Source: a virus | Lineage: Duplodnaviria > Caudoviricetes | IMG/VR virus record: IMGVR_UViG_3300027741_000070 | Span: 1-59,327 of that record | Strand: one strand, 5' to 3' | DNA length: 59,327 nt | Shown here: in pieces, positions 27,336 through 47,700 of the stretch | How the letters are laid out: each line of letters opens with the position of its first letter | Position numbering within the stretch: the stretch's first letter is position 1 | Position numbers and translations under genes: made by a program | The notes under the pieces: generated by a model | What the model saw: only the letters and a program-made list of their open reading frames with translations | The model's database searches: none | Told to the model about the DNA's origin: nothing

Positions 27336-27995
27336 CTACGCTACAGCGCCCTCCCCACCTACGGTGGGGTCATCCATATCATGAATCTGCGCGGCATCTT
27401 CGATGCTCACATGAGATTCTTCAACAGAATCAACGGCTTGGCTTGTTATCTCTGATAACAAACTGTCAGCATCACCATCGGTTTGTTCTGGCTGAATGTC
27501 TATAACATTCAATGACTTAAGTTTATCCAGTATCTGGCTCCTGATTTGTTCACTAGAGTGAACAACAGTCTGTTCTCGGCGCTCTGTAAATGCGGCGACC
27601 TCAGTTACTTTGCCAAGTAACTCCAAGGCTCTGATTCGACTATTCGGCGGATTCTCTTCGTTTGTTGCTTCCATTTGTAATCTTTCGATTACTAATGACC
27701 TGATTTGTTGGGGCGAATGCCACTCCCTAACCTCGTTTAAGGTACTTAAACGGTTGATTTCGCTAGATATTCTTGGGTCTCGCTTAAGCATAGCGGCTTG
27801 GTCTCCTACGCGCTTCGGTGAAGCCGAAGTGTTGTAAGACTGTCTGTACGCCTCAGCAGCCGTGAGACCATTTGCTACTAACCTAGCAAAGCTTTTCTGC
27901 TTTGCAGTTAGTTCCCGCGCGGCAGAACCCAGCAGCAGATTCTCTGCTGGCATTTGCTTCAGTGCTTCGGATATATCTTTTCTCGAAAGTTTCAT
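27336..27995 (-). CDS. terS: Terminase small subunit
   Basis: LTAKQKSFARLVANG..AAEAYRQSY HTH and RIRALELLGK motif; upstream of terL. Confidence 0.85.
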   Translation of the reverse strand: MKLSRKDISEALKQMPAENLLLGSAARELTAKQKSFARLVANGLTAAEAYRQSYNTSASPKRVGDQAAMLKRDPRISSEINRLSTLNEVREWHSPQQIRSLVIERLQMEATNEENPPNSRIRALELLGKVTEVAAFTERREQTVVHSSEQIRSQILDKLKSLNVIDIQPEQTDGDADSLLSEITSQAVDSVEESHVSIEDAAQIHDMDDPTVGGEGAVA

Positions 27996-28284
27996 TTTCT
28001 AATCTGGGGAACATAATGGGAACAAACGATATTGGCGATTATATTCGAGTTTCCCTGTGTGTGCGAGTCAGTGTGTGACCTACGGTTCCTGCGCTGACCG
28101 CTTCGCGTTTCCCCCGCGCTGAATCCTACGGATTCCGAGTTAATCCGTTGATTCCATTATGTTTTTGATTATCTGGCCGATTATCCGTTTGTTACGCCTA
28201 GTGTCTTTGACACTAGATGATTATCTGTTTCCCTGTACATACGCTCGCGCCACTTCGTTGACACGCGCCTACACATCACGCTTA

Positions 28285-28315
28285 AAGACAAATACAGTCT
28301 TTATGTATTTGTCTT
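28285..28315. promoter_or_regulatory. Perfect 12-bp inverted repeat in the divergent control region
   Basis: AAGACAAATACA-N7-TGTATTTGTCTT. Confidence 0.5.
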
Positions 28316-28511
28316 TTCCTGACCGCACATGATGTACGCATCATGATGCTTGTCATGACCTACGCGCATTATGCCTACGCATGAGGCTAAGTCGCTGATT
28401 CCATTGCGTTTTCTCAATCTTTTCGAACTTTTTGAACCGGCGACCGGTCAGAGTCTGCGTCGATTGCGAAATTTTGCTCTCGACTCCGGCCAAGTCTCTC
28501 CGGATGCAAAA

Positions 28512-28847
28512 TGTGAGATGCGGGTAAATGTGTATTACGGCCTCGATGCCTGTCGGGAGACACGCTGAAAGGGCAGGGCGGACGCTCTGACGTGACCGAA
28601 TATGCCGAATATCCCTGACCGCTTTGACCTGCACTTGAACGGTGCAGCGAGTGCGAATCCGTAAGGTACGGCAGGATGGTTTGTCCTGCAAAGCGTGTAC
28701 CTTCAAGCATACTGGCAACGGGGCGCTATATCCGCTGCAAGCATAGGCACACAGATGTCTAGGTAAGGGTAAGGATACCCTGCCCAAATAGCAGTATTCA
28801 GCAGGCAACGCTCTTTTGGAGCGTTGCATGATGCATACCGCATCACA
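28512..28847 (+). ncRNA. Large multi-stem structured leader RNA of unknown family
   Basis: Nested helices: GATGCGG/CCGCATC, TGCCTG/CAGGCA, GGGCAGGG/CCCTGCCC, TATGC/GCATA, CTGCAC/GTGCAG, AAGGTACG/TGTACCTT, GCAGGATG/TGTCCTGC, GCAACGCTC/GAGCGTTGC. Confidence 0.65.
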
Positions 28848-28862
28848 ACCGTGGAGACCACC

Positions 28863-30023
28863 ATGACTGAAATGACTATTGTTCAAGTATTGAACACGCT
28901 TACATTCAAGGAACTCGCTGCAATGCACAAGCATTACGGCGGCGGGTTCGACTTCTTTCGTGGCCCTTCGGGCCATCCCAATTGGGGCAAGTCTGCTGCA
29001 ATCGAGTACCTGATGCAGCGCCACACCCCACAATCCCTTCGGGATGTCGCTTTCACCGTAACGCAAAACACCCAACAACCCAAACCTGAACAAACGGAGA
29101 CCAAAACCATGACCACACCCGACCAACAAGCTGCTGTTCAGAATTTGCTGAATACCTTCGGTATCAGCACCGGCCCCGACGAGGCCCGCATCCGTGAGAT
29201 TGTGGCCGAAGCTATCGCTTCGGTTGAGCCGACCAAGGTTGAGTATCACGTCAAGCGCTTCGACGGTTCCACCGTCAAGGTTGACGGCCACGTCCGGCCT
29301 GAATTCAAAACCATCCTCCGTGACGCCGCGGCTGGCGTCAACATTCTGTTGGTCGGTCCTGCCGGTTGCGGTAAGACTCACATTGCAAAGCAATGTGCCG
29401 AGGCGCTTGACCGCCCCTTTGCATCGGTGTCCTGCACTGCCGGTATGAGCGAGGCGGCTTTCAAGGGCCGTTTGTTGCCGGTTGATAATGGTAATTTCCG
29501 CTACGTTCAATCGGACTTTGTCCGACTGTATCGGAATGGCGGCGTGTTTCTCATCGACGAAGCTGACGCTCTCGACGGTAACGTCGCTCTGACTCTTAAC
29601 AATGCTCTCGCTGGTAACGGATTCAATAATGACCTCATTATTGACGGCGACACTTTTGTGCCACGCCATCCAGACTTCGTCTGCATCGCCGCCGCCAACA
29701 CGTTCGGCACTGGTGCTAACGCTGTCTACGCTGGCCGTGAGCGCTTGGATGAGGCTTTTCTTGACCGATTCCGTGCTGGTCGAATCTCGCTGGATTATGA
29801 CCGTGAACTCGAACGGCAAGCCGTCGATGGCCGCTTGTTGAAGTGGGGCTGGGATGTTCGCAAGAACATCACCGACAACCGTATCCACAAGGTGTTGTCT
29901 ACTCGCTTCCTCATGGAGGCAACGAAGTTGCTAACCGTCGGCGCTACTCATAGCGAAATGGTTGACCGCTTCTTTGCCGACTGGAAGTCGGATGACCGCC
30001 AACGCGTTGACGTTGCCGTCTAA
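28863..30023 (+). CDS. CobS/MoxR-family AAA+ ATPase
   Basis: Walker A GPAGCGKT, Walker B FLIDEAD, HPDFVCIAAANT, RLDEAFLDRF; GGAG RBS before ATG 28863. Confidence 0.9.
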   Translation: MTEMTIVQVLNTLTFKELAAMHKHYGGGFDFFRGPSGHPNWGKSAAIEYLMQRHTPQSLRDVAFTVTQNTQQPKPEQTETKTMTTPDQQAAVQNLLNTFGISTGPDEARIREIVAEAIASVEPTKVEYHVKRFDGSTVKVDGHVRPEFKTILRDAAAGVNILLVGPAGCGKTHIAKQCAEALDRPFASVSCTAGMSEAAFKGRLLPVDNGNFRYVQSDFVRLYRNGGVFLIDEADALDGNVALTLNNALAGNGFNNDLIIDGDTFVPRHPDFVCIAAANTFGTGANAVYAGRERLDEAFLDRFRAGRISLDYDRELERQAVDGRLLKWGWDVRKNITDNRIHKVLSTRFLMEATKLLTVGATHSEMVDRFFADWKSDDRQRVDVAV

Positions 30024-30047
30024 TCCACAACAAACCGGAGGTTTACC

Positions 30048-30944
30048 ATGCAACATCGCTTCATTAAGACTGGCAAGGGCCGCTCGCTGGCCCGCTTCAG
30101 CACCGCCATGTTTGACTCGGTGCAAGACGGGCTGCGTTTCTACGAAACGATTTGTGCCGACGAGTCGCTGGCCCAGCGCGACATGATTGTTGGATTCAAC
30201 AACAAACACACGGCTGACTGGAGCGGCTGCGAATCGGCTGACCAGTTTGCCCACCGTGTCCGTCAGGGTTGGGTGGCTGGCGCTGACCGCCTGATGAAGC
30301 TGCCGGTTGGCGACATCTCGCCGGTGTCAATCAAGCGCCGCCGCTATCAGGGCGACCAAGGTGATGACCTCGATATCCATCGAGTGAATCGCGGCGAACT
30401 CGACACCGCTTGGACATATCACAAGCGTGATGTCAAGCGTGGCGCTGGCCGTCAGGTGACGGTTGTCTGCAACCTCGCAGCAAGCTGGCGCGTTACGGCA
30501 GAACAACTGTTCTGGCGTGGCGCTTCGGCCCTGCGTCTAGCCGAGGCTCTCGAATCGGCTGGCTACTCGGTGCGGATTGTTGCAGCGATGGCAGCGACTG
30601 GCATCGACAGTAAAGAAAATGTCGATAACGCCTACCTGTTCGAGGTTAAGTCTCTCGAACAACCGATTGATGTGGCTAATCTCGCGGCCATCCTTTGCCT
30701 GCCGGCTTACTTCCGAATCATTGGATTTGGCACGAAAGTATGGTCCTGCAACACCAACGACCTGACCGCAGACTACAGTCTCGGCCACACCTCGGATGAC
30801 CTCATCCCGAAGGCGATGGAAGAGTGGTATCCGAACGAGTACTACATCTCGCAACCTCGCACGCTTCTTTCAGAAGAAGCCGCCGCCGAATGGATTGCCC
30901 AGTCGGTTGATACCATCCAGAACCCGCAACAGCTTGCCGCGTAA
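30048..30944 (+). CDS. vWA-like partner of the MoxR/CobS ATPase
   Basis: GDDLDIHR...VTVVCNLAASW...LAEALESAGYSVRI; adjacent to the AAA+ gene as in MoxR-vWA pairs. Confidence 0.7.
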   Translation: MQHRFIKTGKGRSLARFSTAMFDSVQDGLRFYETICADESLAQRDMIVGFNNKHTADWSGCESADQFAHRVRQGWVAGADRLMKLPVGDISPVSIKRRRYQGDQGDDLDIHRVNRGELDTAWTYHKRDVKRGAGRQVTVVCNLAASWRVTAEQLFWRGASALRLAEALESAGYSVRIVAAMAATGIDSKENVDNAYLFEVKSLEQPIDVANLAAILCLPAYFRIIGFGTKVWSCNTNDLTADYSLGHTSDDLIPKAMEEWYPNEYYISQPRTLLSEEAAAEWIAQSVDTIQNPQQLAA

Positions 30945-30973
30945 GCGGCAGTTGTTGCATACAGGAGACCAGC

Positions 30974-31153
30974 ATGAGCCACGCATTCAATGATGCACAA
31001 CGCAACAAAGCGCGCCACATTCTTGAGATTTGTTTGTGTGATGTAGAGAGGGTGGAAAAGTTAGATGACCACAGCATCGACGTAATCTTGGAACTTTCCA
31101 GCATGACGGGTGTCAATGACTGGCTATTCCAGCAGGCCGTTAATCTTGAATAA
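30974..31153 (+). CDS. Early hypothetical protein (59 aa, not in ORF track)
   Basis: AGGAGACC RBS; MSHAFNDAQRNKARHILEI... Confidence 0.65.
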   Translation: MSHAFNDAQRNKARHILEICLCDVERVEKLDDHSIDVILELSSMTGVNDWLFQQAVNLE

Positions 31154-31167
31154 CAGGAGACCAACAA

Positions 31168-31419
31168 ATGAACACACTCGAACAACCCTTCGGCTGGGAA
31201 CAGTCGCAATGGGAAGCGCGTTACTGCTACAACCACAACACGCTGAACTATGACGGCAATCAGTTGCGGAATGTGCGAAGCATTATCGCTACTGCAAAAT
31301 CGTATAACGATTATTGCCTTGCCGACCCCGCCCAAGCAAACAAGTTTGCAAAACTTGTCCGTGATATTTCCCTTGAGAATCAACGCATTGCCAACAAACA
31401 GGAGAACAAAAATGTCTGA
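31168..31419 (+). CDS. Early hypothetical protein
   Basis: AGGAGACC RBS and open frame. Confidence 0.7.
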   Translation: MNTLEQPFGWEQSQWEARYCYNHNTLNYDGNQLRNVRSIIATAKSYNDYCLADPAQANKFAKLVRDISLENQRIANKQENKNV

Positions 31420-31687
31420 TTACAATTTCCCCGAATCGTATGATTCAACCGACGCTGGCCTTGCTGCCCGCCAGATTGCGGCGGCTTGGATTGAGGCCGT
31501 GCTTCGGGGTAATGCCCGAGACCTACATACAACATCGGGCTGGACCGATGCTCACCGCAATGCAGTAAAGGTAGAGCTTAAGAATTTGCAGGCTCGACTT
31601 GACCCGCAGGCTGGCGTTCTTAATCCCAACCCATTCGCCCCGCCCGAGGAACAGATTGTCAAGGGCTGGAGCGCGATAGATACCTAG
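31412..31687 (+). CDS. Early hypothetical protein (start MSDYNF)
   Basis: AGGAG RBS before ATG 31412. Confidence 0.7.
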   Translation: MSDYNFPESYDSTDAGLAARQIAAAWIEAVLRGNARDLHTTSGWTDAHRNAVKVELKNLQARLDPQAGVLNPNPFAPPEEQIVKGWSAIDT

Positions 31688-31734
31688 CCGTGGTATAAAA
31701 CCAATTCGCTTACCGTGCGGATTGGTCTCCACCA

Positions 31735-31801
31735 CGGTTTGTCGAAACGGCCTGCCTTGTGTGGGCCGTCTTACGGTAGCACCGTAACTGATGAGACACC
31801 G
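31735..31801 (+). ncRNA. Hammerhead ribozyme, type II
   Basis: Order: TGTC, GAAA, stem III CGGCCTGC/GTGGGCCG, TC, stem I TTACGGT/ACCGTAA, CTGATGA, GACA. Predicted cleavage after GTC at C31770. Confidence 0.9.
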
Positions 31802-31826
31802 CCGGTTCGCTACCGGCTTTTCTTTT
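31801..31826 (+). terminator. Rho-independent terminator-like hairpin directly after the hammerhead
   Basis: GCCGGT-TCGCT-ACCGGC followed by TTTTCTTTT. Confidence 0.7.
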
Positions 31827-31838
31827 AGGAGACCACAT

Positions 31839-32030
31839 ATGCAAGACGTTCACTTGGTTAAGATTTGGGAAGGCGGCGAATATATCAGCGCAGCATTTGT
31901 CAAAGAGTCTGACCGCGACCCAAGCATTCATACTGTTCTTGCAACGCTTTCACAAATTGAATTGGCAAGAAAACTTGCGGCAGAACTTACCGATATTGCA
32001 AACCAACTTGAGGAGACCGCAAATGTCTGA
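31839..32030 (+). CDS. Early hypothetical protein (start MQDVHL)
   Basis: AGGAGACC RBS. Confidence 0.7.
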   Translation: MQDVHLVKIWEGGEYISAAFVKESDRDPSIHTVLATLSQIELARKLAAELTDIANQLEETANV

Positions 32031-32427
32031 CATTCAAACCATTAGCACCATCGCCGCCGAGATGAGCAAGACTGTTGCCGAGGCTTGCGCCGCGATGACC
32101 GCCGCCGCTGAACAGTTTAAGGCGGCTGATACCCAACCCCCACCCGATGTTCTTGAGTCGATTCTGGCGCGTCTGGAAAAGCTGGAGAGCGCAGTTGAGG
32201 CTATTGATATGACTGTAGAGAAGATTGATTACGACGCCCTATCGGAATGCATCAACCTGTCTGACCTCGCGAATGAAATTGACCCTGCCTTGGTAGCAGA
32301 TTGGGTTGACCTTGAGGATGTCGCAAGAATGATTGACGAATCCGCCGTTGCGGAACACGTTCAGATTGACAATGTATTGAGAACGTCTATCGAAAAAATT
32401 GTTCGTGAAGTGTTGAGGGGTGTCTGA
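32023..32427 (+). CDS. Acidic early hypothetical protein
   Basis: GAGGAGACC RBS; C-terminal ID/VD-x-x-L-A helical repeats. Confidence 0.7.
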   Translation: MSDIQTISTIAAEMSKTVAEACAAMTAAAEQFKAADTQPPPDVLESILARLEKLESAVEAIDMTVEKIDYDALSECINLSDLANEIDPALVADWVDLEDVARMIDESAVAEHVQIDNVLRTSIEKIVREVLRGV

Positions 32428-32692
32428 TATGCGGGACAAGATGAAGATAACAATTTATCTGAACTTGTCCGCTTGGGATTGGGGCTTGTCTGTTGACAAG
32501 CCCCATCCCGAATCAGTAGCGCGACAAATCAATCTGGAAATATCTAGGGCAATCAACGAATCAACAAACTGGTTTGATGCCTTTGGCTTGGCAGAGAAAA
32601 CGCTGTTCAAGTTTGAACATTACGGAGCCAATGCGGCTGGCGCTCGCGCCGTGTTGGACAAAATCCTTACATACATTTACAGGGATGAGTGA
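32420..32692 (+). CDS. Early hypothetical protein
   Basis: Overlap-coupled ORF in the operon. Confidence 0.65.
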   Translation: MSDMRDKMKITIYLNLSAWDWGLSVDKPHPESVARQINLEISRAINESTNWFDAFGLAEKTLFKFEHYGANAAGARAVLDKILTYIYRDE

Positions 32693-32892
32693 TGAGAATT
32701 GTTTTCAGACAATCGGGCAATCCCAAACCTCAGTTTGAGATTGTGAAGGTTGATTACTTTGAGCCGCTCCCCGCCCGCATACAGTTCACTGCCGTTGGGT
32801 ACGAGGGAGTGCAGGAGATTCCATACAACAAGAAAAAAGAGTTGATGTGGATGGGCAAGACGTATGACTTTGTTGAAGTATTTGATAACTAA
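32689..32892 (+). CDS. Early hypothetical protein
   Basis: GTGA overlap with the previous ORF. Confidence 0.6.
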   Translation: MMRIVFRQSGNPKPQFEIVKVDYFEPLPARIQFTAVGYEGVQEIPYNKKKELMWMGKTYDFVEVFDN

Positions 32893-32901
32893 GAGGGCGA
32901 T

Positions 32902-33273
32902 ATGCAAGCATACTTTATTGATTCTGCAAACAAAACAATCACCGACGTTGAGTACGACGGTGACTACCGCAACATTTCCAAGATGCTTGGCTGCGATATG
33001 TTCACCGTTGTCAACCTTAACGAAGACGGTGATGCGCTGTTCGTTGATGACGAAGGTTATCTGAAAGACCAAGATAACCAGAATTATTTCTGGTTCGAGG
33101 GATACCCAACGATGCTGGCAGGCAACGGACTGGTACTCGGAACGGATGCAGAAGGAGAATCTATCGAACCATGCCGCCTGATTGATTGGGTGAAAGACCG
33201 CGTTCGCTTTCAAGAAAAGAACACCGCGCCTTTGTTTATCCCCGACCTTAACCCACAAATCTTTTCATTCTGA
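32902..33273 (+). CDS. DUF3846-like protein
   Basis: LFVDDEG...LAGNGLVLG.D.EGE pattern. Confidence 0.7.
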   Translation: MQAYFIDSANKTITDVEYDGDYRNISKMLGCDMFTVVNLNEDGDALFVDDEGYLKDQDNQNYFWFEGYPTMLAGNGLVLGTDAEGESIEPCRLIDWVKDRVRFQEKNTAPLFIPDLNPQIFSF

Positions 33274-33280
33274 GGGAATC

Positions 33281-33634
33281 ATGGAACAACAAATCAAAGA
33301 TGTCGAGACTATGCTTGATGAAGTACTTGAATCAATCAGGTCTCATCACGGCGAAGACTACGCAAAGTTCGTAGTCTTGATGACTAGCGTTGCACAAATG
33401 CAGGAGGCAGTAAGCTCGATTGTTTACGCCGCTCTCGATAAGGAAAACAGCGGGGCCAAGGATAAGTTTGTACAAATGAACTATGGAAAGTTCATGTCTT
33501 TAATTGCCTCCACTTGTTCGAACCTTGCACCCGACTATGGCCTAGAGGATGAGGACGAACTGGAGGGCGCATTGAAATGGGCCGCAAAGATTGTGGATAT
33601 GGCATCAGAGAAAATGGAAACGCCCTTGCAGTAA
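33281..33634 (+). CDS. Helical hypothetical protein (paralog of the next gene)
   Basis: GAGG RBS; similar to 33678-34046. Confidence 0.7.
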   Translation: MEQQIKDVETMLDEVLESIRSHHGEDYAKFVVLMTSVAQMQEAVSSIVYAALDKENSGAKDKFVQMNYGKFMSLIASTCSNLAPDYGLEDEDELEGALKWAAKIVDMASEKMETPLQ

Positions 33635-33639
33635 TCAAC

Positions 33640-33666
33640 GCGGCCTTCGGGCCGCTTAATTTTTTT
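33640..33666 (+). terminator. C(UUCG)G hairpin, terminator-like
   Basis: GCGGCC-TTCG-GGCCGC followed by TTAATTTTTTT. Confidence 0.6.
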
Positions 33667-33677
33667 GGAGACTACAA

Positions 33678-34046
33678 ATGAAAATGCCCAGCGAAGAACA
33701 AATCAAAGAAGTAAAGGAAAGCCTTGACGATATTCTTAATTCAATCGAGGTACACAAGGGCTTGGAATTTGCCATGTTTGTTCATGCAATGGTTTCATTA
33801 AAACAAATGTGCGAAGGTATTCATGTTCTTGGAAAGATATGCGAAAGGCATGAAGATAATTTTTCTGAAGAAGAAAAATTATTGGCGTCAACATTTTTGT
33901 CCATCGCTCCAGACATTTCTGTTGCCGCGTTTTCAAAGTTCGCTATTGCTGCCAAGTTTAACGATGAGCAAGCCAATGAAGTTATTGAATGGGCTGAAAG
34001 AATCGAGAGCCAAATGGATAAGGCGGCGCGAGCGCTGATGAACTGA
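33678..34046 (+). CDS. Helical hypothetical protein (paralog of the previous gene)
   Basis: GGAGAC RBS; similar to 33281-33634. Confidence 0.7.
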   Translation: MKMPSEEQIKEVKESLDDILNSIEVHKGLEFAMFVHAMVSLKQMCEGIHVLGKICERHEDNFSEEEKLLASTFLSIAPDISVAAFSKFAIAAKFNDEQANEVIEWAERIESQMDKAARALMN

Positions 34047-34073
34047 TGATAGTGACCTACAAAGGATACCCAT

Positions 34074-34196
34074 ATGTGCAAGCCAAGAAATTATTTCGTA
34101 GTCCACGCCCACCGCCGAAAGGCTGGGGCGCATGGCAAAACGCGCAAGGCGCAACGCGTAGCAGCTAAACGCGAACTTAAAAAGGAATACAAATGA
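34074..34196 (+). CDS. 40-aa basic peptide (not in ORF track)
   Basis: MCKPRNYFVVHAHRRKAGAHGKTRKAQRVAAKRELKKEYK; AAGGA RBS; ATGA overlap with the next ORF. Confidence 0.6.
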   Translation: MCKPRNYFVVHAHRRKAGAHGKTRKAQRVAAKRELKKEYK

Positions 34197-34396
34197 ACGA
34201 CAATTACAGGCGCAAAGACTTCTTTTCCCCGCGCTCAATGCGCGAGGCATTTGGTCGGGACAATTCTTTTGAGCCAGAAATCCGCTGTTGTTCCGAAATG
34301 TTTGGCGTTAAAAAGAAACGTAGGGCCATTGGCGCACCATTGCTTGCTGCGCTTTGTTTAATTGTTTGGGCGGTAATTACAAAGTTTGGACATTGA
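34193..34396 (+). CDS. Small protein with C-terminal transmembrane helix
   Basis: FSPRSMREAFG motif; hydrophobic IGAPLLAALCLIVWAVI. Confidence 0.65.
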   Translation: MNDNYRRKDFFSPRSMREAFGRDNSFEPEIRCCSEMFGVKKKRRAIGAPLLAALCLIVWAVITKFGH

Positions 34397-34417
34397 TGTT
34401 ATGATGCGCTGCACCAT
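34377..34417 (+). promoter_or_regulatory. Candidate sigma70 promoter with overlapping palindromic operator
   Basis: TTACAA-N17-TATGAT with TG extension; imperfect palindrome ATGATGCGCTGCACCAT at 34401-34417. Confidence 0.45.
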
Positions 34418-34433
34418 TTTTTAGGAGAGCATC

Positions 34434-34580
34434 ATGTTTAATTTCACTTCCGTCATCACCGAATGGTCGAAGATGTACCGCGACCTTTACAACAAAGCTC
34501 ATTCCGAGTTTGTTGAACATTGGACCAAGGCCGAGCAAAAGATTGAAGATTCTTTTAAGATTGTTTGGTGGAATAAGTAA
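34434..34580 (+). CDS. 48-aa helical protein (not in ORF track)
   Basis: TAGGAG RBS; MFNFTSVITEWSKMYRDLYNKAHSEFVEHWTKAEQKIEDSFKIVWWNK; stop abuts the hammerhead. Confidence 0.65.
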   Translation: MFNFTSVITEWSKMYRDLYNKAHSEFVEHWTKAEQKIEDSFKIVWWNK

Positions 34581-34633
34581 GTCCCTCTGAAGAGTCCTCA
34601 TTGGACGAAACCCGCTTCGTGCGGGTCAGGGAC
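34581..34633 (+). ncRNA. Hammerhead ribozyme, type I
   Basis: Stem I GTCCCT/AGGGAC, core CTGAAGA, stem II GTCC/GGAC, GAAA, stem III CCCGC/GCGGG, then TC. Predicted cleavage after C34627. Confidence 0.92.
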
Positions 34634-34750
34634 ACCCCAGCTACCTTCCGGTGCGGCTGGGGATAACATGGCAGCGCTTGCTGTAAGGCGCGAAAGCAAC
34701 ACATGGCGGGTGTACAACCGACCATGCGTCATGCAAGTAACGGAACCGGC

Positions 34751-36445
34751 CTACAAATAATCTTCGTAGTACGAGCCTGTAGCTTTTTCATACTTGAGGT
34801 TGGTTTCGCCAACCTTGCCCACCCAACGCCAGCGGCACTTCCACACTTTAATCAGGACGTTGTTAGCTTCTTGACGATGCACGGTGAGTCCGCAATCTGC
34901 CTTAGCCCACCACGCCATCGAGCCAGCAACGCTCATGCCGTCAGGAACAGGCATATCGTCACCCATCCTTAACATCTTGGCAGGGTGAGCCACAAACCAA
35001 ATGTGTACACCAGCAGACTTTGCGAACGCCTGAACCTTTGTCAGCATCTTCGAGATGGCATCGGTCTCCGTGCCTTCGCGCTGCAAGTTGATGAAGTTGT
35101 AGGGGTCAATCACAAGCCCGCGAATACCCAGCCGTTGAACTGCGCTTTGGGCGCGGTCAAGAATGCTTTCAATCGTGTTCTCACTGTTCTGGCTGTCAAG
35201 GAACACAAAGTGTTCTTTGACAAATTGCATGGCGACATTACGGTCTTCTTCCGTCATGCGTGGCGTAATGCCAGCGAAGAAAGGCTTCTTCAGATAAAGC
35301 TCGCAGAGCTTCGCAATATGCAGCGGAGGCGGGTTCTCGAACGAACAAATGGCGAACTTCCAGTCCTTGCACATGGCCAGATTGGTAAGAATCTGGTCAA
35401 CGAAGTTGGACTTACCTGAAGACGGATACCCGGTGACGATTGTTACTTGGCCGGGTACTACCGTGTAAAGCTCATCGACATTCGTATAGCCTGTCGATTC
35501 CCCGCTGCCAAAACCCTTGTTGTACAAGTCGGCAACGGCGTCGGCGTACTCTGAAGCATCGAACAAACCATCAATCGGATAAGGGGCGGCGTCTTCAACG
35601 AGTTCTTTAACCCTGTCCGAACCGTACTTGGTAAGCACATCGTTAAGGTCTTTGCACCCTTCTGGGTAGGAGATTACTCTGCACTTTGCCTTGCCAATCC
35701 GGCGGGCCAATTCTTCTTTGAGAGCCGTGCCAGCGATGTCGCCATCCGATGCAATCACGATGTATGGCGCTGCATTGATTTGTTTGTTGGCATCCCAAAC
35801 GAAGCTGAACTTGCGGTCTTCGGTTGGGTCAACACGGCCTTCGCTTACCTTGATTGGAGCGCCGCTCGGTACGGAAAGGACGTTCTTAACGCCAGCCTCG
35901 ATACAAGTAAGCGCATCAATCTCGCCCTCGACAATCACAATCGGGAGCGTCGTGTCCAAGTCATCTAACAGATAAAAGATTTGGTCGCCGCTCGTTTCCT
36001 GCGAAAAACCTTTCTGCTCAATGCTCCGGTACTTGATGTTTACAACATTGCCGCCGCGCATATATGGGAAGGCGATACATGAAACCTCGCCACCAACCTT
36101 CTGAATGTAACGACTGGTTGAGTAAAGATTTGCAGACTTTGCTGTTTGTTCTGAAATGCCGCGACTATTTAAATACGAAATTGCCTTTGGAGTCAATGAG
36201 TTACCGATAGGTTTTTCGATGGCTGACATGGCTTTCCTCGGGGTGAACTGGCGATAAGGTGACATCCCTGACCAACCGCAATGGTGACAAGTCCAGACAA
36301 TTCCATTGTCTTTGCGGTCAATGCTCAGGCACGTTTCTTTAGACTTCTTCCGCTCGGGTGAGCATGAAGGGCAAATGGTGCGGGCATGGTCACGATGCCC
36401 CAGCAGGGCAAGGACTTCGCCCGACAGGTCGGACAGAGCGCTCAT
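34751..36445 (-). CDS. Primase-helicase (T7 gp4/Twinkle-like)
   Basis: N-terminal CxxC...CxxC zinc domain, TOPRIM (IVEGEIDAL, DGDIAG, CKDLND), SF4 helicase (TGYPSSGKS, LVIDPY, VAHP). Confidence 0.93.
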   Translation of the reverse strand: MSALSDLSGEVLALLGHRDHARTICPSCSPERKKSKETCLSIDRKDNGIVWTCHHCGWSGMSPYRQFTPRKAMSAIEKPIGNSLTPKAISYLNSRGISEQTAKSANLYSTSRYIQKVGGEVSCIAFPYMRGGNVVNIKYRSIEQKGFSQETSGDQIFYLLDDLDTTLPIVIVEGEIDALTCIEAGVKNVLSVPSGAPIKVSEGRVDPTEDRKFSFVWDANKQINAAPYIVIASDGDIAGTALKEELARRIGKAKCRVISYPEGCKDLNDVLTKYGSDRVKELVEDAAPYPIDGLFDASEYADAVADLYNKGFGSGESTGYTNVDELYTVVPGQVTIVTGYPSSGKSNFVDQILTNLAMCKDWKFAICSFENPPPLHIAKLCELYLKKPFFAGITPRMTEEDRNVAMQFVKEHFVFLDSQNSENTIESILDRAQSAVQRLGIRGLVIDPYNFINLQREGTETDAISKMLTKVQAFAKSAGVHIWFVAHPAKMLRMGDDMPVPDGMSVAGSMAWWAKADCGLTVHRQEANNVLIKVWKCRWRWVGKVGETNLKYEKATGSYYEDYL

Positions 36446-36690
36446 TTATTTTTTTTGGAACGGTTTGAACTGGCGGTCTTCATACGAAGGTTTGACTTCG
36501 TGTTGCTACCGCCCTTTGATAGCGGGATGACATGGTCAACATCCATGCCGTCTCCCTTCTTGGCAGAGCCTTCCCGAATCTTCTGACGGCGGGCGGCATT
36601 TCGTTTTGCTCGATTCTTCTTCTGTTCTTCTGTGCTGTGGTACTCGGCGTACTCTTTATCGTATGGACGTTTCTTCGTGACGTATGGCAT
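36442..36690 (-). CDS. Small HNH endonuclease
   Basis: DVDHVIPLSKGGSN...NLR...SNR; start MPYVTKKR. Confidence 0.8.
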   Translation of the reverse strand: MPYVTKKRPYDKEYAEYHSTEEQKKNRAKRNAARRQKIREGSAKKGDGMDVDHVIPLSKGGSNTKSNLRMKTASSNRSKKNK

Positions 36691-37051
36691 TTTCTTCAAC
36701 CCATGAGTACCAGAATCGGATGGCTTCTTTAAGGTGTTCTGCGGTGGACCCAAGATAGACTGTCTCGGAGCCATTTAACAACCAAAGCCCCGTCACGTTC
36801 AGTCCATCATCTGTGTCGCCGTGAACAATTAAAACGCGCCAATCGGGCTTCCTCGAAAGGGCTTCGAGCATCAGTCTTTGACCAATGCTAAACCTTTCGT
36901 TGGGACGTTTCCATTCGGCACATAGGCAGTATCCTCTGCGCTCTATGACCATGTCAAGGTCGCTTGGAAGTAGTTTGGGGTTGCTTGGGATGATGCCTAC
37001 GAACGCCTCAAAGTCTATGTGACGAGCGTCCTGATTGCGTAAAAGACTCAC
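36656..37051 (-). CDS. PD-(D/E)XK-like hypothetical protein (start probably GTG 37051)
   Basis: PSDLDMVIER...AEWK...GQRLML motif. Confidence 0.6.
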   Translation of the reverse strand: MSLLRNQDARHIDFEAFVGIIPSNPKLLPSDLDMVIERRGYCLCAEWKRPNERFSIGQRLMLEALSRKPDWRVLIVHGDTDDGLNVTGLWLLNGSETVYLGSTAEHLKEAIRFWYSWVEENAIRHEETSIR

Positions 37052-37129
37052 TTGAAATCCCCTATGCGATGGGCAGGTTGTAACACTTAGTGTGTTAAAT
37101 TTAAAGCACTTTATTGATGGAGTTGCCCC

Positions 37130-37303
37130 ATGAGCCTCGAACAAATTCTTAGCGATATGGTGGGTCGCACCATCATTGATGTCGGCACTGAAGACGACGA
37201 ACTGATGATTAGCTTAGACGACGGAGTCGTCATTTGGGTCTATGTCGAGGACGAAGAACTCGTGATGTCTGTCAGTCACGAGGAGAAAAAACCTCCACAA
37301 TGA
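37130..37303 (+). CDS. 57-aa acidic protein (not in ORF track)
   Basis: GGAG RBS; MSLEQILSDMVGRTIIDVGTEDDELMISLDDG... Confidence 0.55.
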   Translation: MSLEQILSDMVGRTIIDVGTEDDELMISLDDGVVIWVYVEDEELVMSVSHEEKKPPQ

Positions 37304-38456
37304 CCGGATTCACCATCACTCTAGCGTACTCCCCCAGCTTGGAGTGGTAGGTAATACATTGTGCGTCACGCTGGCTGCGGTAGCCAGAGACGTGAGCGTA
37401 CAAGTCATTCGGCTGTAAGACTCGATGAGTCTCCACCGCTACCCCCGGCTCATCTTTTAAAGTCTTGTGATGCACATGACCCATGTGTGCGTACCGAAAC
37501 TTTGTCTGCCCCCACATCTCTGACTCGTCTGATGCCATCACGCCTTGGATAGCGTTCGACTTTGTTGTGTCTCCATGAGTGGCGGCAAGCATCACATCCC
37601 CATGTTTATGAAAGTAAAATTTGTTGGGAGATGTTTCGATATGAACCCTTGGCTCATCTTCGTAAGCAACCTGAAGCCAAAGGCTTAAATCAATTGCAGA
37701 GTAATCATCGTGGTTGCCTTGGATGTTCCAGACAATTACCTTCTTGTGCTTCTTTAGCGCCATCTCAATCATGGCGCGAAGAATTTTGAAACCAACAACG
37801 CGAACCTTCTGGTAACGCCCATCGACTGATAAAGGATGCCCGCTTCGCAGAGTAATGTTCCTGCCGTCATCGGCGTGATAATAGTCGCCGAGGTTTAGGA
37901 TGATTGCTGTCTCTGCCGCAGGTGAGCGATTGACCAAATCGGCGTGGGCCGTGGTGAACAAATTGATGCTGGAGTTAAGGTCGTGATTCTCTCCAGTTTC
38001 TTCTGCCCATGTGCGTAAACCGACGTGCGGGTCTCCAAAAATGTAACAGTTCAGTAATAATGGGCTAACTGCTTCGTTCAGCTTTGTTGGTTGCGCCCTT
38101 GGGATTTCATCCTTGAAGGCTTCGAGAAATGCATCTCGTATGTCTTGTTGGTTCTCATGCGCTAACGAAGACTTGACCCATTGACCTTTGACCGAACCGT
38201 CTTCCGAGTAATAGGTTGATACACCCTTCACAACAAATCCGGCTGGAACCGGATGCTTCATGTCATAGTCTGGAGCTAAACCAGATTGAGCAGCTTTCTT
38301 CTTTAATCTAGTTAAATGTTCTTGTAAAGAATCAACTCTCATACCCAATTTATTTGCTGCTTCTTGTTGACTAGATGATTTATCTAATACATCAAGAACT
38401 TCATGTTGTCTTACATTAGCAAATTCTCTTAAGTACTCATAATTAACTCTTGCCAT
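37272..38456 (-). CDS. Calcineurin-like metallophosphoesterase with N-terminal HTH
   Basis: GDPH, LGDYYH, GNHD, THGD and GHVHH metal-binding motifs. Confidence 0.85.
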   Translation of the reverse strand: MARVNYEYLREFANVRQHEVLDVLDKSSSQQEAANKLGMRVDSLQEHLTRLKKKAAQSGLAPDYDMKHPVPAGFVVKGVSTYYSEDGSVKGQWVKSSLAHENQQDIRDAFLEAFKDEIPRAQPTKLNEAVSPLLLNCYIFGDPHVGLRTWAEETGENHDLNSSINLFTTAHADLVNRSPAAETAIILNLGDYYHADDGRNITLRSGHPLSVDGRYQKVRVVGFKILRAMIEMALKKHKKVIVWNIQGNHDDYSAIDLSLWLQVAYEDEPRVHIETSPNKFYFHKHGDVMLAATHGDTTKSNAIQGVMASDESEMWGQTKFRYAHMGHVHHKTLKDEPGVAVETHRVLQPNDLYAHVSGYRSQRDAQCITYHSKLGEYARVMVNPVIVEVFSPRD

Positions 38457-38835
38457 TATTGGTCTCCAAAAGATTTAATTTAATTACTATTAAACAAAAA
38501 GCATCTATATCCATATGTATAAGATGCCCGCGCACATCTAACAGGCAAACGTCGGCGCAGTCAAGTACGAATGTCCACGGCTTGCGGCTTTGACGGTAAG
38601 CAAGTACTGGCACATCATCCTTGGCCTGCTTCTGCGCCTGCTCCCACCAGTCCTTGACAGCCAACCTCTCTTGGCGCTTTACTTCCAACTTGATTCTCCC
38701 CATGTCGATGCAGTCAGCACCACCGTACCGGCTCTGAGTAATGTTGCGTTCAAACTTCCTGCCCAGCTTCTCGCCAAGCAATGCCAAGACTTCCCGCTCA
38801 CCGGTAGCACCCTTGACACGTTGTGACTTTCCCAT
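38443..38835 (-). CDS. Holliday junction resolvase-like PD-(D/E)XK nuclease
   Basis: KGATGERE...GGAD...LEVKRQE...WWEQA...PVLAYRQSRKPW. Confidence 0.8.
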   Translation of the reverse strand: MGKSQRVKGATGEREVLALLGEKLGRKFERNITQSRYGGADCIDMGRIKLEVKRQERLAVKDWWEQAQKQAKDDVPVLAYRQSRKPWTFVLDCADVCLLDVRGHLIHMDIDAFCLIVIKLNLLETNNGKS

Positions 38836-38836
38836 A

Positions 38837-38864
38837 TTGACACCCCGCTCGAATCTGATATATT
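38837..38864 (+). promoter_or_regulatory. Candidate sigma70 promoter for the recombination operon
   Basis: TTGACA-N16-TATATT with TG extension; ATATTGACACC occurs twice (38834 and 38860). Confidence 0.5.
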
Positions 38865-38903
38865 GACACCGATGGGAACGATTGTACCCACACAGGAGAC
38901 CAC

Positions 38904-42460: not shown

Positions 42461-42549
42461 GCCAGAGTGGTGAAATCGGTAGACACAGCAGACTTAAAAT
42501 CTGCCGACCATAACAGGTTGTGCCGGTTCGATTCCGGCCTCTGGCACCA
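42461..42549 (+). tRNA. tRNA-Leu (anticodon TAA)
   Basis: Acceptor GCCAGAG/CTCTGGC plus ACCA; D loop GGTAGAC; anticodon arm GCAGA-CTTAAAA-TCTGC; long variable arm; GGTTCGATTCC. Confidence 0.95.
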
Positions 42550-44541: not shown

Positions 44542-44708
44542 CATACATTTGGTTCAATCTTTTGATGCTTCACTCAGGGCATCTATACTGGATAGATTCT
44601 TTTGAGTCGCTTTACGAATGCCAACAGATGGAAGTTTGGTATGAGGGTCAGCAGCAATACAAAACTGACAAGTTTTTTTGTCCGTTTGTTTGGGTCGATA
44701 GAACTTAA
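44538..44708 (+). CDS. Hypothetical protein (start MTYIWF)
   Basis: ATGA overlap; last gene before the convergent late arm. Confidence 0.5.
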   Translation: MTYIWFNLLMLHSGHLYWIDSFESLYECQQMEVWYEGQQQYKTDKFFCPFVWVDRT

Positions 44709-47700
44709 TCTCTAAGTTTCTTTACTTGCTCGTTGAGGCGCTTCATCTGAGCGATGATGCGGTCATTGATGCGCTTGATTTGTTCAGGATTGGCCCCGCG
44801 CTCAGTTAGGCGCTTTTTCTGTTGGCGCAACTCTTTGATGTTGTTCTCAATAGAGTTAGAGATTGGAACAAGTTTTGCCTCGGGGTTTTCTTTGATGTAC
44901 TCAAACACCGGCTCATGATTCTTGCGCCGACCTTTGATTTCATTCTCATGTTCGTTTAGGCGCGTGATGTTGTCGTAGTACCTCTGCATTTGTGCGGCGT
45001 TAGATTCTGCATTGCCATAGAACCTGCCAACCAATGGAATCTTGTACGGAGCCAACTCTTCTCCAGTAGAAATGCTGGAGACTGCTTGTGCGCCCTTGCC
45101 AATTTCACGCGCAACACCACCACCAATTTGTCCAATTACATAGTCAATCTGGTCTGGAGTCCAGTTAATACCACCCGGCTTGTACTTTGTGCCGCCGCTT
45201 GCTTTGTTTAAAAACTCTGCCATCCACTTGCTCCAAGCAGTAGCAGTGTCCTTTGTTCTAAGGTAGCCCGGCGTCGGGTCAGTAGCATTCAATTCTGGTT
45301 TGTAAATCGGGCGACCAAATGAATCTTTGTTTTCTGCAAGAGCAGCAAACGGGTCAAGCGCCGTAGGTGCAACAGTTTGTAAAGACCAGCCGCCACCACC
45401 AATCGGGTTAAACGTATCAATCACAGAACCAAAAATGCCTGTTATGTGTTTGCCGGTATCACGGAATCCACTGAGACACCATTCCATTATGTTGCGCGAA
45501 ACATTTGGAATGACGTTGTATCCCAACGGCATCGGAATAGAAATGTATTTCTTCCCGCCAACCGGGATAACAATGTTACGTTCCTTCAAGAATTCTGGCG
45601 GTTCATCTTCATCGAATCCTGCCGCAGCCAAGGCTAGAGCCTGAACAATGCCCAACAACAATCCGCCATAAATAATCTTCTTCGCCATTGGACCCCGGAG
45701 GGTTTCCAAGATGCGCGCGTTGCCCTGAACAGAGGCGTTAAAGAACGCATACAAAGCGCCCATCTGGGTAGCAATGTTGCCCTTGCGGTTGAAGTTGACG
45801 GTGATGTTCTTGGCAACACTGGCCGCCTGCTGCTTGGACAAACCTTTGTCCAGCGCGGCTTTATAAGCCGTAAGGCGAACAGCGTTTTCCATCGAGGTGT
45901 TGTAATCAGATAAGAAGTCACCTAAAGCCCGGAGCTTCGGCATAACTCCAGTGCCATCAATGCTTTTGATTTCAGTTTTGATAGCGTCAGCCCGCTCTTC
46001 AGTGCTGCTATACATACTGCGATAGCCAGTTTGACCGCCTTCCTCTTGGAGTTCTTGCCACAGCTTTGCCCATTGCGAAGCAGGCATGGTCCCCTTGTCT
46101 CGCTCTGCTCTTGAGACCTTCCAAATTGCCCCGAGCGCACCATTCAAGTTTTCCACGCTCATGACATCTTTAACTTTGTCTGCGATAGGCGTAGTAGACA
46201 AGTTAAGGGTTGCGCCTTCGATGTCGCGCAAGAAGTTAACAATACCGAATATAGGGTTGTACTGAGTATTCACCCGAGCAAACCAACGGCTAATCCCGCC
46301 CATGATGGACATGACGCGGCCAAGTTCGTCTGCATCAAGATTCTTCAATGCCGATACCATCCGTTTTGCGCGCGGGTCGTTGCTGTTAAACAACAAATAG
46401 TGATTGCGCCCGTTAATTCTGGTAGCAAGAATGTTGGGGCTGTTTAAAACATACGGGTCAATTTTGTTTGTTACAAGCCCGGTCTTATGGTCAATGACTT
46501 TTCTTGTGGGCTGCTGGAAGATGTTCTGAATATCGTTAGGGCTGATACCAAGATTTAACAGTTCATTCTGAACCTTGGACACATCTTTGATAGCCTCTGG
46601 GTCGATTGGCAACCAGAAGTCTTTGTTGGGGTTCTGAACGGCAAGACCATACACAGACTGTGCCACGCGATTCTTTTCGGCACGGATGATGGCGCGTTCA
46701 CGCTGCATGACAATGTTGGCAAAGATTTGAACAACACCGCGATTTGAACCCATTGCTCGCTTCGAGAAGTCACCTCGAATGTTGAAGCCTTGACCAACGC
46801 CATACCCAGATGTAGTTACATAGTCCGCGTCTTCGCGGAACAGCGGAACGTAGTGCGGGTAAGTCTGCTCCCACGAAGCAATTGTTTGCGGTAGCTCAAG
46901 ACCAGAATCAACAAGAACCTGACGAGTGTCACGGTTGATGTCATCCACCCGCTTTGCAATCGAATCTAATAAGCGACGACGAGCGGGCGGTATTGCATTC
47001 AAATAGTTACGAGCGGTTTGTGTCGCAATGCCAGAACCAGCATCAGGCATTGCCGGGTTAATGCTGGCAATTTGTTTGTTGCGTTCTTCTGCATGACGGT
47101 TGTGCAAGAACTCTTCAAACTCAGGGATGCTGATGTTGTGCTTTGAAAGGTCGAGCAGCAGCGGGCGAAGCTCAGTCCGCAGGAAACGCTCCGTCTGTTG
47201 TGCTGTGCGCCCGTGATAAAGCTCTTCTTGAAGATATGGATTCCATTTGTCAAGAATTTTTCCAGCAGCTTTGGTGATTTCCTGAACGACGCGTTTAACG
47301 TCAACCATCTTGTCCTGTATTTGGAAGATGGCATCGTCAGTCTTGCTATCTGTCGGCTCAGTCCAAGTGGGAAGAGTTGCCGGTTGGCCCAAAACGTTTT
47401 GCGGCAAAGCAAATTGAATTTTGTCAGAGCCAAGACCAAACTCACCATTGTTGCCAAATGCAGCTTTGATTTGTTTTGGACTAAAGACAGCTACGTTCTT
47501 GTAGAACTGGCCCTTCGTAGCTTCGGTAATAAAGAAGCCATCGAAGCCAAGACGCTTAATTGCATCAATCACTTCGCCCGTTTCAAATACAGGCCATGCC
47601 CCTGACATCAGCCTTTGGCGCAAGCCTTCCTTGCTGTACTTTTTGGGTTCAATGATTGACTCGGGCGCAACGTAGAACTCTTCTTCCGTCCCGCCGCCTT

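Follow-up and report, generated by a model that had tools for sequence, protein, structure and literature searches.

Why should a whole block of early bacteriophage genes be preceded by one and the same extended ribosome-binding site, GGAGACC? This question is raised by the IMG/VR virus record IMGVR_UViG_3300027741_000070, a linear, complete-looking virus (96% complete) which we analysed over its entire 59,327 bp and which is referred to as the window in the following. A preliminary description of this DNA had reported eight copies of GGAGACC in front of start codons and had proposed that an RNA released by a hammerhead ribozyme of the same region acts on them as an antisense regulator. The explanation which we favour, with a probability of roughly 0.58, comprises three parts. 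GGAGACC(A) would be a start-associated cassette acting in cis as ribosome-binding site for a block of early, non-structural genes of this ~59-kb freshwater podophage, composed of the Shine-Dalgarno core GGAG, 5-9 nucleotides (nt) before ATG, and a 3' extension which does not pair with 16S ribosomal RNA (rRNA). The hammerhead would cut messenger RNA (mRNA), and the hairpin adjoining it, designated P0, would be a structural element of a 3' end rather than a trans-acting regulator.

The restriction of the motif to one class of genes is clearly borne out by its counts. On both strands of the window GGAGACC is present in 15 copies compared to 3.61 ± 2.0 in dinucleotide shuffles, none out of 100 of which reaches 15, and ACC is the commonest of all triplets following GGAG (15 of 225). 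Start sites were defined as GGAG followed within 4 to 11 nt by an ATG or GTG which opens at least 40 codons, a definition that yields 42 sites. ACC follows GGAG at nine of the 14 starts between 27.8 and 38.9 kb but at none of the 28 starts elsewhere (Fisher p = 4.5e-6). All nine ACC-bearing sites use ATG, and eight of them continue with A, giving GGAGACCA. The early-versus-late enrichment for which the preliminary description had suggested a test is thereby confirmed, and its eight sites are correctly placed: each of the eight true sites is located on the coding strand, 2-6 nt before ATG, within 28.8-38.9 kb. The six copies that are not associated with a start are near the number expected by chance (3.6).

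The late genes of the window phage are preceded by a plain (C)TAAGGAG lacking ACC, the TAA being present at five of the 28 outside sites. ACC mismatches the canonical tail of 16S rRNA, which may not be the one of the host. The preliminary description had pointed out, apparently rightly, that the canonical anti-Shine-Dalgarno sequence does not account for the extension. Since the late genes manage without ACC, the host ribosome does not require it, and a deviating host anti-Shine-Dalgarno sequence was rejected as its source. Tandem gene duplication, which might have multiplied identical ribosome-binding sites, was rejected as well because no paralogues were found.

The first cassette (28853-28859, plus strand) ends 3 nt before ATG 28863, the start of a cobS-like AAA ATPase open reading frame (ORF; 28863-30023), and the second (29096-29102, plus strand) precedes ATG 29109, which lies within this ORF and in its frame. 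Further plus-strand copies are found at 30964-30970 before ATG 30974 (ORF of 59 amino acids, aa), at 31156-31162 before ATG 31168 (83 aa), at 31828-31834 before ATG 31839 (63 aa; ORF 31839-32030) and at 32012-32018 before ATG 32023 (134 aa). On the minus strand, the copy at 38461-38467 precedes ATG 38456 of an exonuclease gene (37272-38456) and lies in the 3' end of a PDDEXK_15 gene (38443-38835), while the plus-strand copy at 38895-38901 precedes ATG 38904 of a PD-(D/E)XK exonuclease gene. A variant, GGAGAAC, is located at 31401-31407 (plus strand) before ATG 31412, a site at which the relative L276 shows GGAGACC, and near-variants occur at 33667 (GGAGACT) and 34424 (GGAGAGC). On the minus strand, the small-terminase gene (27336-27995) contains a further GGAGACC (27800-27806), which is followed by an in-frame ATG. 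It is probably coding sequence and not a ribosome site, although it could provide a second internal start of the small terminase. This copy is conserved in the relatives L050 and L052. The true start of the small terminase is the one at 27995, since alignments with relatives extend over 160-217 aa of the long form, the N-terminus of which resembles the helix-turn-helix of a terminase.

A large-terminase search of IMG/VR yielded 473 related stretches, and our comparisons rest on 80 of these. The window's cassettes are kept in its close relatives L050 (99% terminase identity) and L052 (91%) as well as in L275 and L276, which emerged from a metagenome scan. In two more distant relatives, L108 and L119 (71-72% terminase identity), GGAGACC is present six times each, in all six cases before ATG, yet within flanks which differ from those of the window (aaCCyTGGAGACCTTG or GAC); blastp returned no match between their cassette genes and those of the window. 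Other related lineages harbour repeated early-gene cassettes of their own. These read GGAGGTTTAA-ATG in L054 (89% terminase identity), with the longer form GGAGGTTTAAATG; GGAGATCAGACG-ATG in L111 and its kin (L103, L106, L091, L117 and L122), with GGAGATCAGACGATG at up to 10 starts; CTAGGAGATTCAA and also CTAGGAGATTCAAATG in L095; and CCTGGAGCAC in L120. One particular GGAGNNN heptamer recurs at three or more ATG starts in 19 of 48 loci, i.e. the window and 47 related loci which measure 8 kb or more, some of them near-duplicates, with 33 of the 80 loci dropped as shorter than 8 kb; GGAGATC is the repeated heptamer in six loci, GGAGACC in five and GGAGGTT in two. This count replaced one of fixed-distance 8-mers before ATG, which detected cassettes in only seven of the 48 loci and under-counts them because spacers vary. 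A degenerate pattern, TGGAGACCTTGMMNATG, was discarded as too loose: it matches 117 stretches, and among the 80 of these listed only L162 (the L108 contig) and L160 contain more than one match. In none of the six genomes tested were the cassette-bearing genes paralogues of one another. GGAGACC and GGAGATC are one transition apart, and intermediates such as GGAGACCGAC occur. The fact that related lineages possess repeated cassettes of their own identifies ACC as one lineage's version of a wider habit.

Comparison of the window with its close relatives reveals where genes have been exchanged. In a blastn alignment with L050, ten ends of high-scoring segment pairs lie in the stretch 28743-32008; seven of them are no more than 15 nt away from a cassette, and one boundary lies at 30961, just ahead of the cassette at 30964. 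L050, L275 and L276 lack the 63-aa gene (31839-32030), the break being located between the GGAGACC copies at 31828 and 32012, and in L052 the 59-aa gene is missing, likewise between the equivalents of 30964 and 31156. At 31156 the sequence ACAGGAGACCAACAAATG is common to all three genomes, which differ in either the gene before it or the gene after it. The cassette at 28853 is conserved in L050 and L052 despite a cobS gene body which is only 43% identical, and in the window the N-terminal module of cobS (28840-29085, 77% nucleotide identity) is joined to a different AAA body exactly at the cassette 29096. The window sequence is present in freshwater metagenomes, and the joint of 31835 to 32022, which skips the 63-aa gene, is found in contigs of three out of four public runs, one of them an RNA library. 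Contigs of runs X2, X4 and X11 carry this gene, and both forms occur in the freshwater runs X4 and X11; stretches lacking cover in X24 or X11 are uninformative. Natural populations are polymorphic for the 63-aa gene. In addition, five of the 16 loose ends listed for the metagenome contigs (30961, 30971, 31168, 31171 and 31826) lie within 10 nt of a cassette. One metatranscriptome library contains four short contigs of the region, one of which spans the 31835/32022 joint; these contigs show neither transcription nor RNA ends.

The cobS-like ORF itself has the appearance of a fusion. Its 82-aa N-terminal module (77% nucleotide identity in L049 and L050, 80% in L052) is connected via a low-complexity linker to the AAA body, which has diverged to 35-43% identity in L050 and L052. 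At the joint the window shows the full GGAGACC with its in-frame ATG, whereas L050 and L052 show GGAGG followed by GTG. Two protein isoforms are possible.

The uniform extension would thus be a trait of the lineage, with gene cassettes gained, lost and swapped exactly at the cassette sequences. Taken together, lineage-specific versions and swaps at the cassettes suggest that the shared cassette propagated with modular recombination and probably helps it, a process which would be assisted by the Erf annealing protein and the exonucleases of the phage. The extension would then be retained through exchange and insertion of early genes at the cassettes, possibly also because a factor reads it. We would like to note that phage genomes in general are often mosaic at gene starts, so that the junctions demonstrate coincidence with the cassettes and not a cause.

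The intergenic region 31688-31838 harbours a type II hammerhead ribozyme (31740-31798, plus strand), the presence of which the preliminary description had correctly recognised. Its stem II comprises 4 bp (31740-31743/31795-31798) and is followed by GAA (31744-31746), stem III 9 bp (31747-31755/31761-31769) and stem I 7 bp (31771-31777/31781-31787), with CUGAUGA at 31788-31794 and cleavage predicted after C31770. The core is complete, including CUGAUGA, GAA, the A15.1-U16.1 pair (A31747-U31769) and a non-G residue H17 (C31770), and the topology is that of type II, stems I and III being closed by loops and stem II being open. Rfam Hammerhead_II (RF02276) matches 31740-31805 with 32.9 bits (E = 6.5e-5 in a 501-nt search), a score below its gathering cut-off. 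A descriptor of the motif matches once in the window and in none of 300 first-order Markov simulated windows, both strands considered. In an alignment of five sequences 99.6% of the cells are paired, and 100% in the three hammerhead stems; stem I shows one compensatory change from A-U to G-C (in two sequences) and stem III three one-sided changes which keep the pairing. The covariation is shallow but consistent. We therefore regard the type II hammerhead as real, as a sub-threshold new member of its class whose self-cleavage is predicted. Directly after it follows a hairpin resembling an intrinsic terminator (31801-31826, plus strand), formed by a stem (31801-31806/31812-31817) and a T-run, in which L276 exhibits one compensatory change from G-C to A-U.

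The element shares all core nucleotides with known type II hammerheads (RF02276; Perreault et al. 2011, PMC3088659) and it is located between genes of a phage operon, just upstream of a ribosome site. The same paper describes prophage hammerheads which follow a stop codon and precede the next ribosome site. The element differs from known copies in its 3-nt loop I (AGC), in the lack of a pseudoknot and in a score of 32.9 bits, below the cut-off of 37. Moreover, a 54-nt hairpin separates the stop codon from the ribozyme and the terminator follows directly. A pattern with the same stem III sequence matches 53 times, in 48 viral contigs other than the window, and these copies too are intergenic and precede ribosome sites. 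On visual inspection almost all of them occupy the gap from a stop codon to the following ribosome site, and unlike the window hammerhead they adjoin both. A relaxed descriptor applied to 82 related loci (834 kb) retrieved four orthologues and one unrelated hammerhead in L059 only. The latter is a clean type II hammerhead on the minus strand of its locus (about 7170-7211). By eye, L097 contains a type I-like arrangement and L064 a hammerhead-like copy with A at position 10.1; none of the elements of L059, L064 and L097 appeared at E ≤ 0.05 in the Rfam scan, and a gathering-level Rfam scan of eight related loci returned no match.

If active, the hammerhead would cut an early polycistronic RNA after C31770. 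The upstream mRNA would end in two hairpins, P0 and stem III, with a cyclic phosphate, while the cut would detach the terminator or the downstream cistron, the downstream RNA starting with a 5'-OH. RNA ends carrying a cyclic phosphate or a 5'-OH should resist bacterial RNA decay. The element adds one more phage example to the known hammerheads, and its setting, with a hairpin before and a terminator after the ribozyme, could show how a ribozyme affects mRNA ends.

Hairpin P0 comprises 54 nt (31686-31739, plus strand) directly after the stop codon (31685-31687) and consists of an outer stem (31686-31694/31731-31739) and an inner stem (31700-31709/31717-31726) separated by an internal loop AUAAA / CUCC. 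The segment 31688-31770 (83 nt) folds with -40.2 kcal/mol (z = -5.1). The 3' arm of P0 contains the anti-motif TTGGTCTCCAC (31722-31732, plus strand), which, as the preliminary description had stated, is the complement of 10 nt of the cobS site (28851-28860) and of 9 nt each of those at 29096 and 31156. It had further given UCUCC as predicted to be unpaired between two stems; in our folds only CUCC (31727-31730) is predicted unpaired, the remaining U being paired. Altogether seven of the 11 nt of the anti-motif are paired, 31722-31726 (TTGGT) closing the 10-bp inner stem and 31731-31732 (AC) beginning the outer stem, with CUCC as the sole free part.

On these grounds one might assume that the hammerhead frees an RNA of the 3' untranslated region (about 31688-31770) whose TTGGTCTCCAC pairs in trans with the GGAGACC sites, best with that of cobS, and represses them. 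Perfect complementarity of 10, 9, 9 and 8 nt, duplexes of the isolated segments ranging from -15.4 to -20.6 kcal/mol, the exposure of CUCC in an internal loop, retention of the anti-motif in all five close relatives and a ribozyme which would define the 3' end speak in favour of such an antisense regulator. Opening of the 11-nt anti-motif, however, costs +11.8 kcal/mol, the free seed amounts to 4 nt where a trans-acting small RNA calls for a single-stranded seed of at least about 6 nt, and in the minimum-energy structures of the co-folds P0 stays closed with seven out of seven ribosome-site targets. Since no sigma-70-like promoter was found upstream of 31688, cleavage would leave the whole upstream mRNA as its 5' product, barring a second cut. 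Among the partial contigs compared, seed and targets are also not conserved together beyond near-identical relatives. A search of IMG/VR for GGTCTCC within 4-30 nt of CGAAAC...CTGATGA yielded 29 loci, only two of which, L153 (= L050) and L154 (= L052), show this element; judged by eye, some three of the others are genuine hammerheads whose upstream ORF happens to contain GGTCTCC, and the remainder do not qualify as hammerheads. Anti-motif and hammerhead are present in L275 and L276 as well, so that all carriers are near-identical relatives. In contrast, L108 and L119 keep six GGAGACC starts each, and within their partial contigs neither a non-coding anti-motif nor the hammerhead was found; the sole GGTCTCC of L108 lies inside a structural gene and L119 has none. 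Nor do the 21-kb loci of L054, L111, L095 and L120 contain antisense copies of their own cassettes. The idea of an antisense regulator put forward in the preliminary description, which had itself named an anti-motif missing from relatives that keep GGAGACC as evidence to the contrary, hereby loses most of its support, and we consider it very unlikely.

A switch acting in cis is less probable still. Here, the anti-motif would pair with the ribosome site at 31828-31835, about 100 nt downstream, until cleavage frees translation of the downstream gene. Indeed, TGGTCTCC at 31723-31730 is complementary over 8 nt to GGAGACCA at 31828-31835, the predicted cut lies between the two, and conservation of the pair extends to relatives in which another gene has taken the downstream place. 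In both the minimum-energy and the centroid fold of 31685-31850, however, P0 stays closed and the 31828 site does not pair with the anti-motif; in the minimum-energy fold this site is free. As the terminator is located between the anti-motif and the 31828 site, many transcripts would never contain both. A reading of 31724-31730 as a ribosome site of the minus strand was rejected since no start codon follows. Read on that strand, the P0 arm looks like the cobS cassette CCGTGGAGACCA plus three additional bases, which hints at the arm being an inverted copy of that cassette. Within our favoured explanation the anti-motif would simply be the mostly paired 3' arm of P0.

Several findings weigh against the combination of a cis-acting cassette, an mRNA-cutting hammerhead and a structural P0. 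The relatives examined, 80 of 473, are mostly partial contigs, and because junctions of most phages fall at gene starts, junctions at the cassettes are not specific evidence for a role in recombination. The score of the hammerhead is below the Rfam gathering cut-off of 37 bits, so that it is absent from a gathering-level scan, and the copy of L275 reaches 31.8 bits. Furthermore, the hammerhead lacks the pseudoknot between loop I and 3' tail which most type II examples use; loop I is short, the 3' tail forms the terminator, and by inspection no pseudoknot of at least 4 bp is discernible. According to the available text of PMC3088659 a pseudoknot is present in about 40% of all hammerheads and in the majority of type II, some having no known contact. 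P0 is invariant in the five sequences, and covariation therefore cannot test its structure or a role of the CUCC loop. The occurrence of the 8-mer complement TGGTCTCC in a structured non-coding RNA beside a ribozyme is unlikely to be a chance event, with, by a rough estimate, about 0.1 copies expected in all of the non-coding sequence and about 0.002 at this place. The search for complementarity was made post hoc, and the six non-start copies of the motif are near the 3.6 expected. Finally, recombination alone leaves unexplained why the extension is uniform within a genome and different between lineages, and why GGAGACC persists in L108 and L119 within different flanks. A co-evolving factor would explain both better.

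Such a factor could be a sequence-specific RNA-binding protein or endoribonuclease of phage or host which reads GGAG together with ACC(A) and thereby jointly regulates the genes of the early module. Its effect on their mRNAs could be activation, repression or inactivation, and the cassettes of individual lineages would reflect co-evolution with this factor. This is consistent with an extension which is limited to one gene class, absent from late genes, uniform within a genome, different between lineages and attached to non-homologous genes. Precedents exist in the 11-nt target of RegB/S1 (PMC1702504) and in a proposal made for start-associated sequences (PMC3203893), as far as the available text of both sources goes, and the many small uncharacterised ORFs of the phage leave room for a factor. 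Yet among the window products scanned (45 plus 28 with Pfam, 45 with PHROGs) there is neither a RegB-family endoribonuclease nor any match to RegA, CsrA, S1/CSD, KH or another RNA-binding domain, and no early gene of the window which might encode a shared factor is matched in the GGAGACC carriers L108, L119 and L160 (tblastn, E ≤ 1e-5). We hold a factor of this kind to be rather unlikely, albeit worth serious consideration. A similarly tentative, slightly less probable proposal goes further: GGAGAYC-type cassettes might constitute a start-associated translational regulon in Gram-negative freshwater podophages, timed by a lineage-specific factor which co-evolves with the 3' extension, the cassettes doubling as microhomology for an exchange of gene cassettes mediated by Erf. 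Either a small unannotated protein of the phage or the 3'-untranslated-region RNA which carries P0 and is freed by the hammerhead could serve as the factor. If true, this would provide a tractable counterpart of the start-associated sequences with the natural specificity variants GGAGACC, GGAGATCAGACG and GGAGGTTTAA. Such variants could be used to distinguish a cassette which is read by a factor from one which is kept as an exchange point of early genes.

Reading of GGAGACC/GGTCTCC at the level of double-stranded DNA, be it by a transcription factor, a nicking or homing enzyme or a methyltransferase, would make the P0 copy just another site. The heptamer includes the hexamer GAGACC, presumably the complement of a type IIS restriction site. 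An inverted copy away from a start exists here, as it does for the start-associated sequences of cluster K mycobacteriophages in the available text of PMC3203893. Orientation and position of the motif, however, are strictly tied to starts, with eight of eight true sites on the coding strand 2-6 nt before ATG and all other copies near chance expectation, so that we regard recognition of the DNA as exceedingly improbable.

The closest analogue of the cassette, as an analogue and not as a sequence member, appears to be these start-associated sequences (SAS; Pope et al. 2011, PMC3203893), for which a regulatory factor was proposed in that paper and whose function is still unassigned according to the available text of a 2025 survey (PMC12699233). 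As portrayed in the accessible part of the former paper, SAS are short asymmetric repeats with a GGAG core and conserved flanks unable to pair with 16S rRNA; they stand 3-7 nt upstream of mostly ATG starts of non-structural genes only, belonging to unrelated gene families, with a single inverted copy away from a gene start and an abundance that varies between sublineages. All this, with ACC as a putative non-pairing flank, resembles the situation in the window, whose eight true sites likewise occupy the coding strand a few nt before starts of exclusively non-structural genes. The SAS, in contrast, comprise 13 nt (GGGATAGGAGCCC) instead of the 7-8 nt (GGAGACCA) seen here, and with up to two mismatches allowed the cassette does not conform to that consensus, as its sites read GGAGACC(A) with variable 5' flanks. 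SAS belong to actinobacteriophages, whereas the window derives from a freshwater podophage with hints of a Betaproteobacteria-type host, in which no ESAS-like 17-bp inverted repeats were seen. In addition, sister lineages carry different extensions here and the cassettes coincide with mapped mosaic junctions. SAS have been on record for a single mycobacteriophage cluster since 2011, and an analogue in an unrelated phage group would widen the phenomenon. Literature searched on GGAGACC in conjunction with ribosome-binding site and phage, or on start-associated sequences, within one paper collection only, yielded no description of the cassette.

A second system with a related layout is RegB/S1 of phage T4 (Durand et al. 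2006, PMC1702504). There, in the available text, ribosome sites of early genes contain GGAG with an A-rich tail. Both systems thus combine GGAG with an informative 3' extension in early ribosome sites, that of RegB/S1 being read by a factor other than 16S rRNA; the extension here is ACC(A) while that of RegB is a degenerate A-rich tract. The arrangement of cassettes and exchanged genes in the window bears a further resemblance. In T4-type phages mobile promoter-stem-loop cassettes reportedly mediate modular shuffling. Like the cassettes studied here, these are said to be short repeated expression signals between small early genes at places of gene gain and loss, but they span tens of nt and include a promoter whereas here the ribosome site itself, 7-15 nt long, is the repeated unit.

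The genes surrounding the cassettes fit a podophage. Podophage-type virion genes (large terminase, portal, capsid, SU10-type adaptors and tail fibres) are arranged in minus-strand blocks, and the region from about 27.3 to 44.7 kb harbours the small terminase, the cobS-like AAA ATPase, a DUF7192 protein and many small ORFs along with primase/helicase, HNH, exonucleases, Erf, MazG and tRNA-Leu. GenBank phages show no DNA match to the window, and its proteins match only distant Acinetobacter phages with 29-34% identity. Queries with the DUF7192 and cobS proteins retrieved no close relatives from viral contigs. In L097 a match to RF02932, a Betaproteobacteria-1 RNA family, with 100 bits (299-417, plus strand) gives a hint as to the group to which the hosts of this phage family belong.

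Some further signals are located next to cassettes. About 30 nt before the cassette at 38895 lies a sigma-70 promoter (38837-38864) with a near-consensus TTGACA, a 16-nt spacer and TG-TATATT, matching at 11 of 12 positions. It is arranged back to back with the minus-strand operon of the PDDEXK_15 and exonuclease genes, from which it follows that this early unit is probably read by the host RNA polymerase. Between 33640 and 33673 a strong terminator-like hairpin (GCGGCC TTCG GGCCGC plus a T-run) is directly followed by the near-variant GGAGACT and ATG 33678, a succession of terminator and cassette which matches that of 31801-31839 but lacks the ribozyme. Just upstream of the cobS ribosome site, within the divergent intergenic region of about 870 bp (27996-28862), an imperfect 23-nt inverted repeat is found (28791-28841) with the core GCAACGCTC / GAGCGTTGC and a 5-nt loop. 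The plus-strand early block furthermore contains the gene of a tRNA-Leu with anticodon UAA and a long variable arm (42461-42549), and on the minus strand 44705-52327 encodes a polyvalent protein of 2,540 aa with an ADP-ribosyltransferase domain (ART-PolyVal) and an LPD38 domain.

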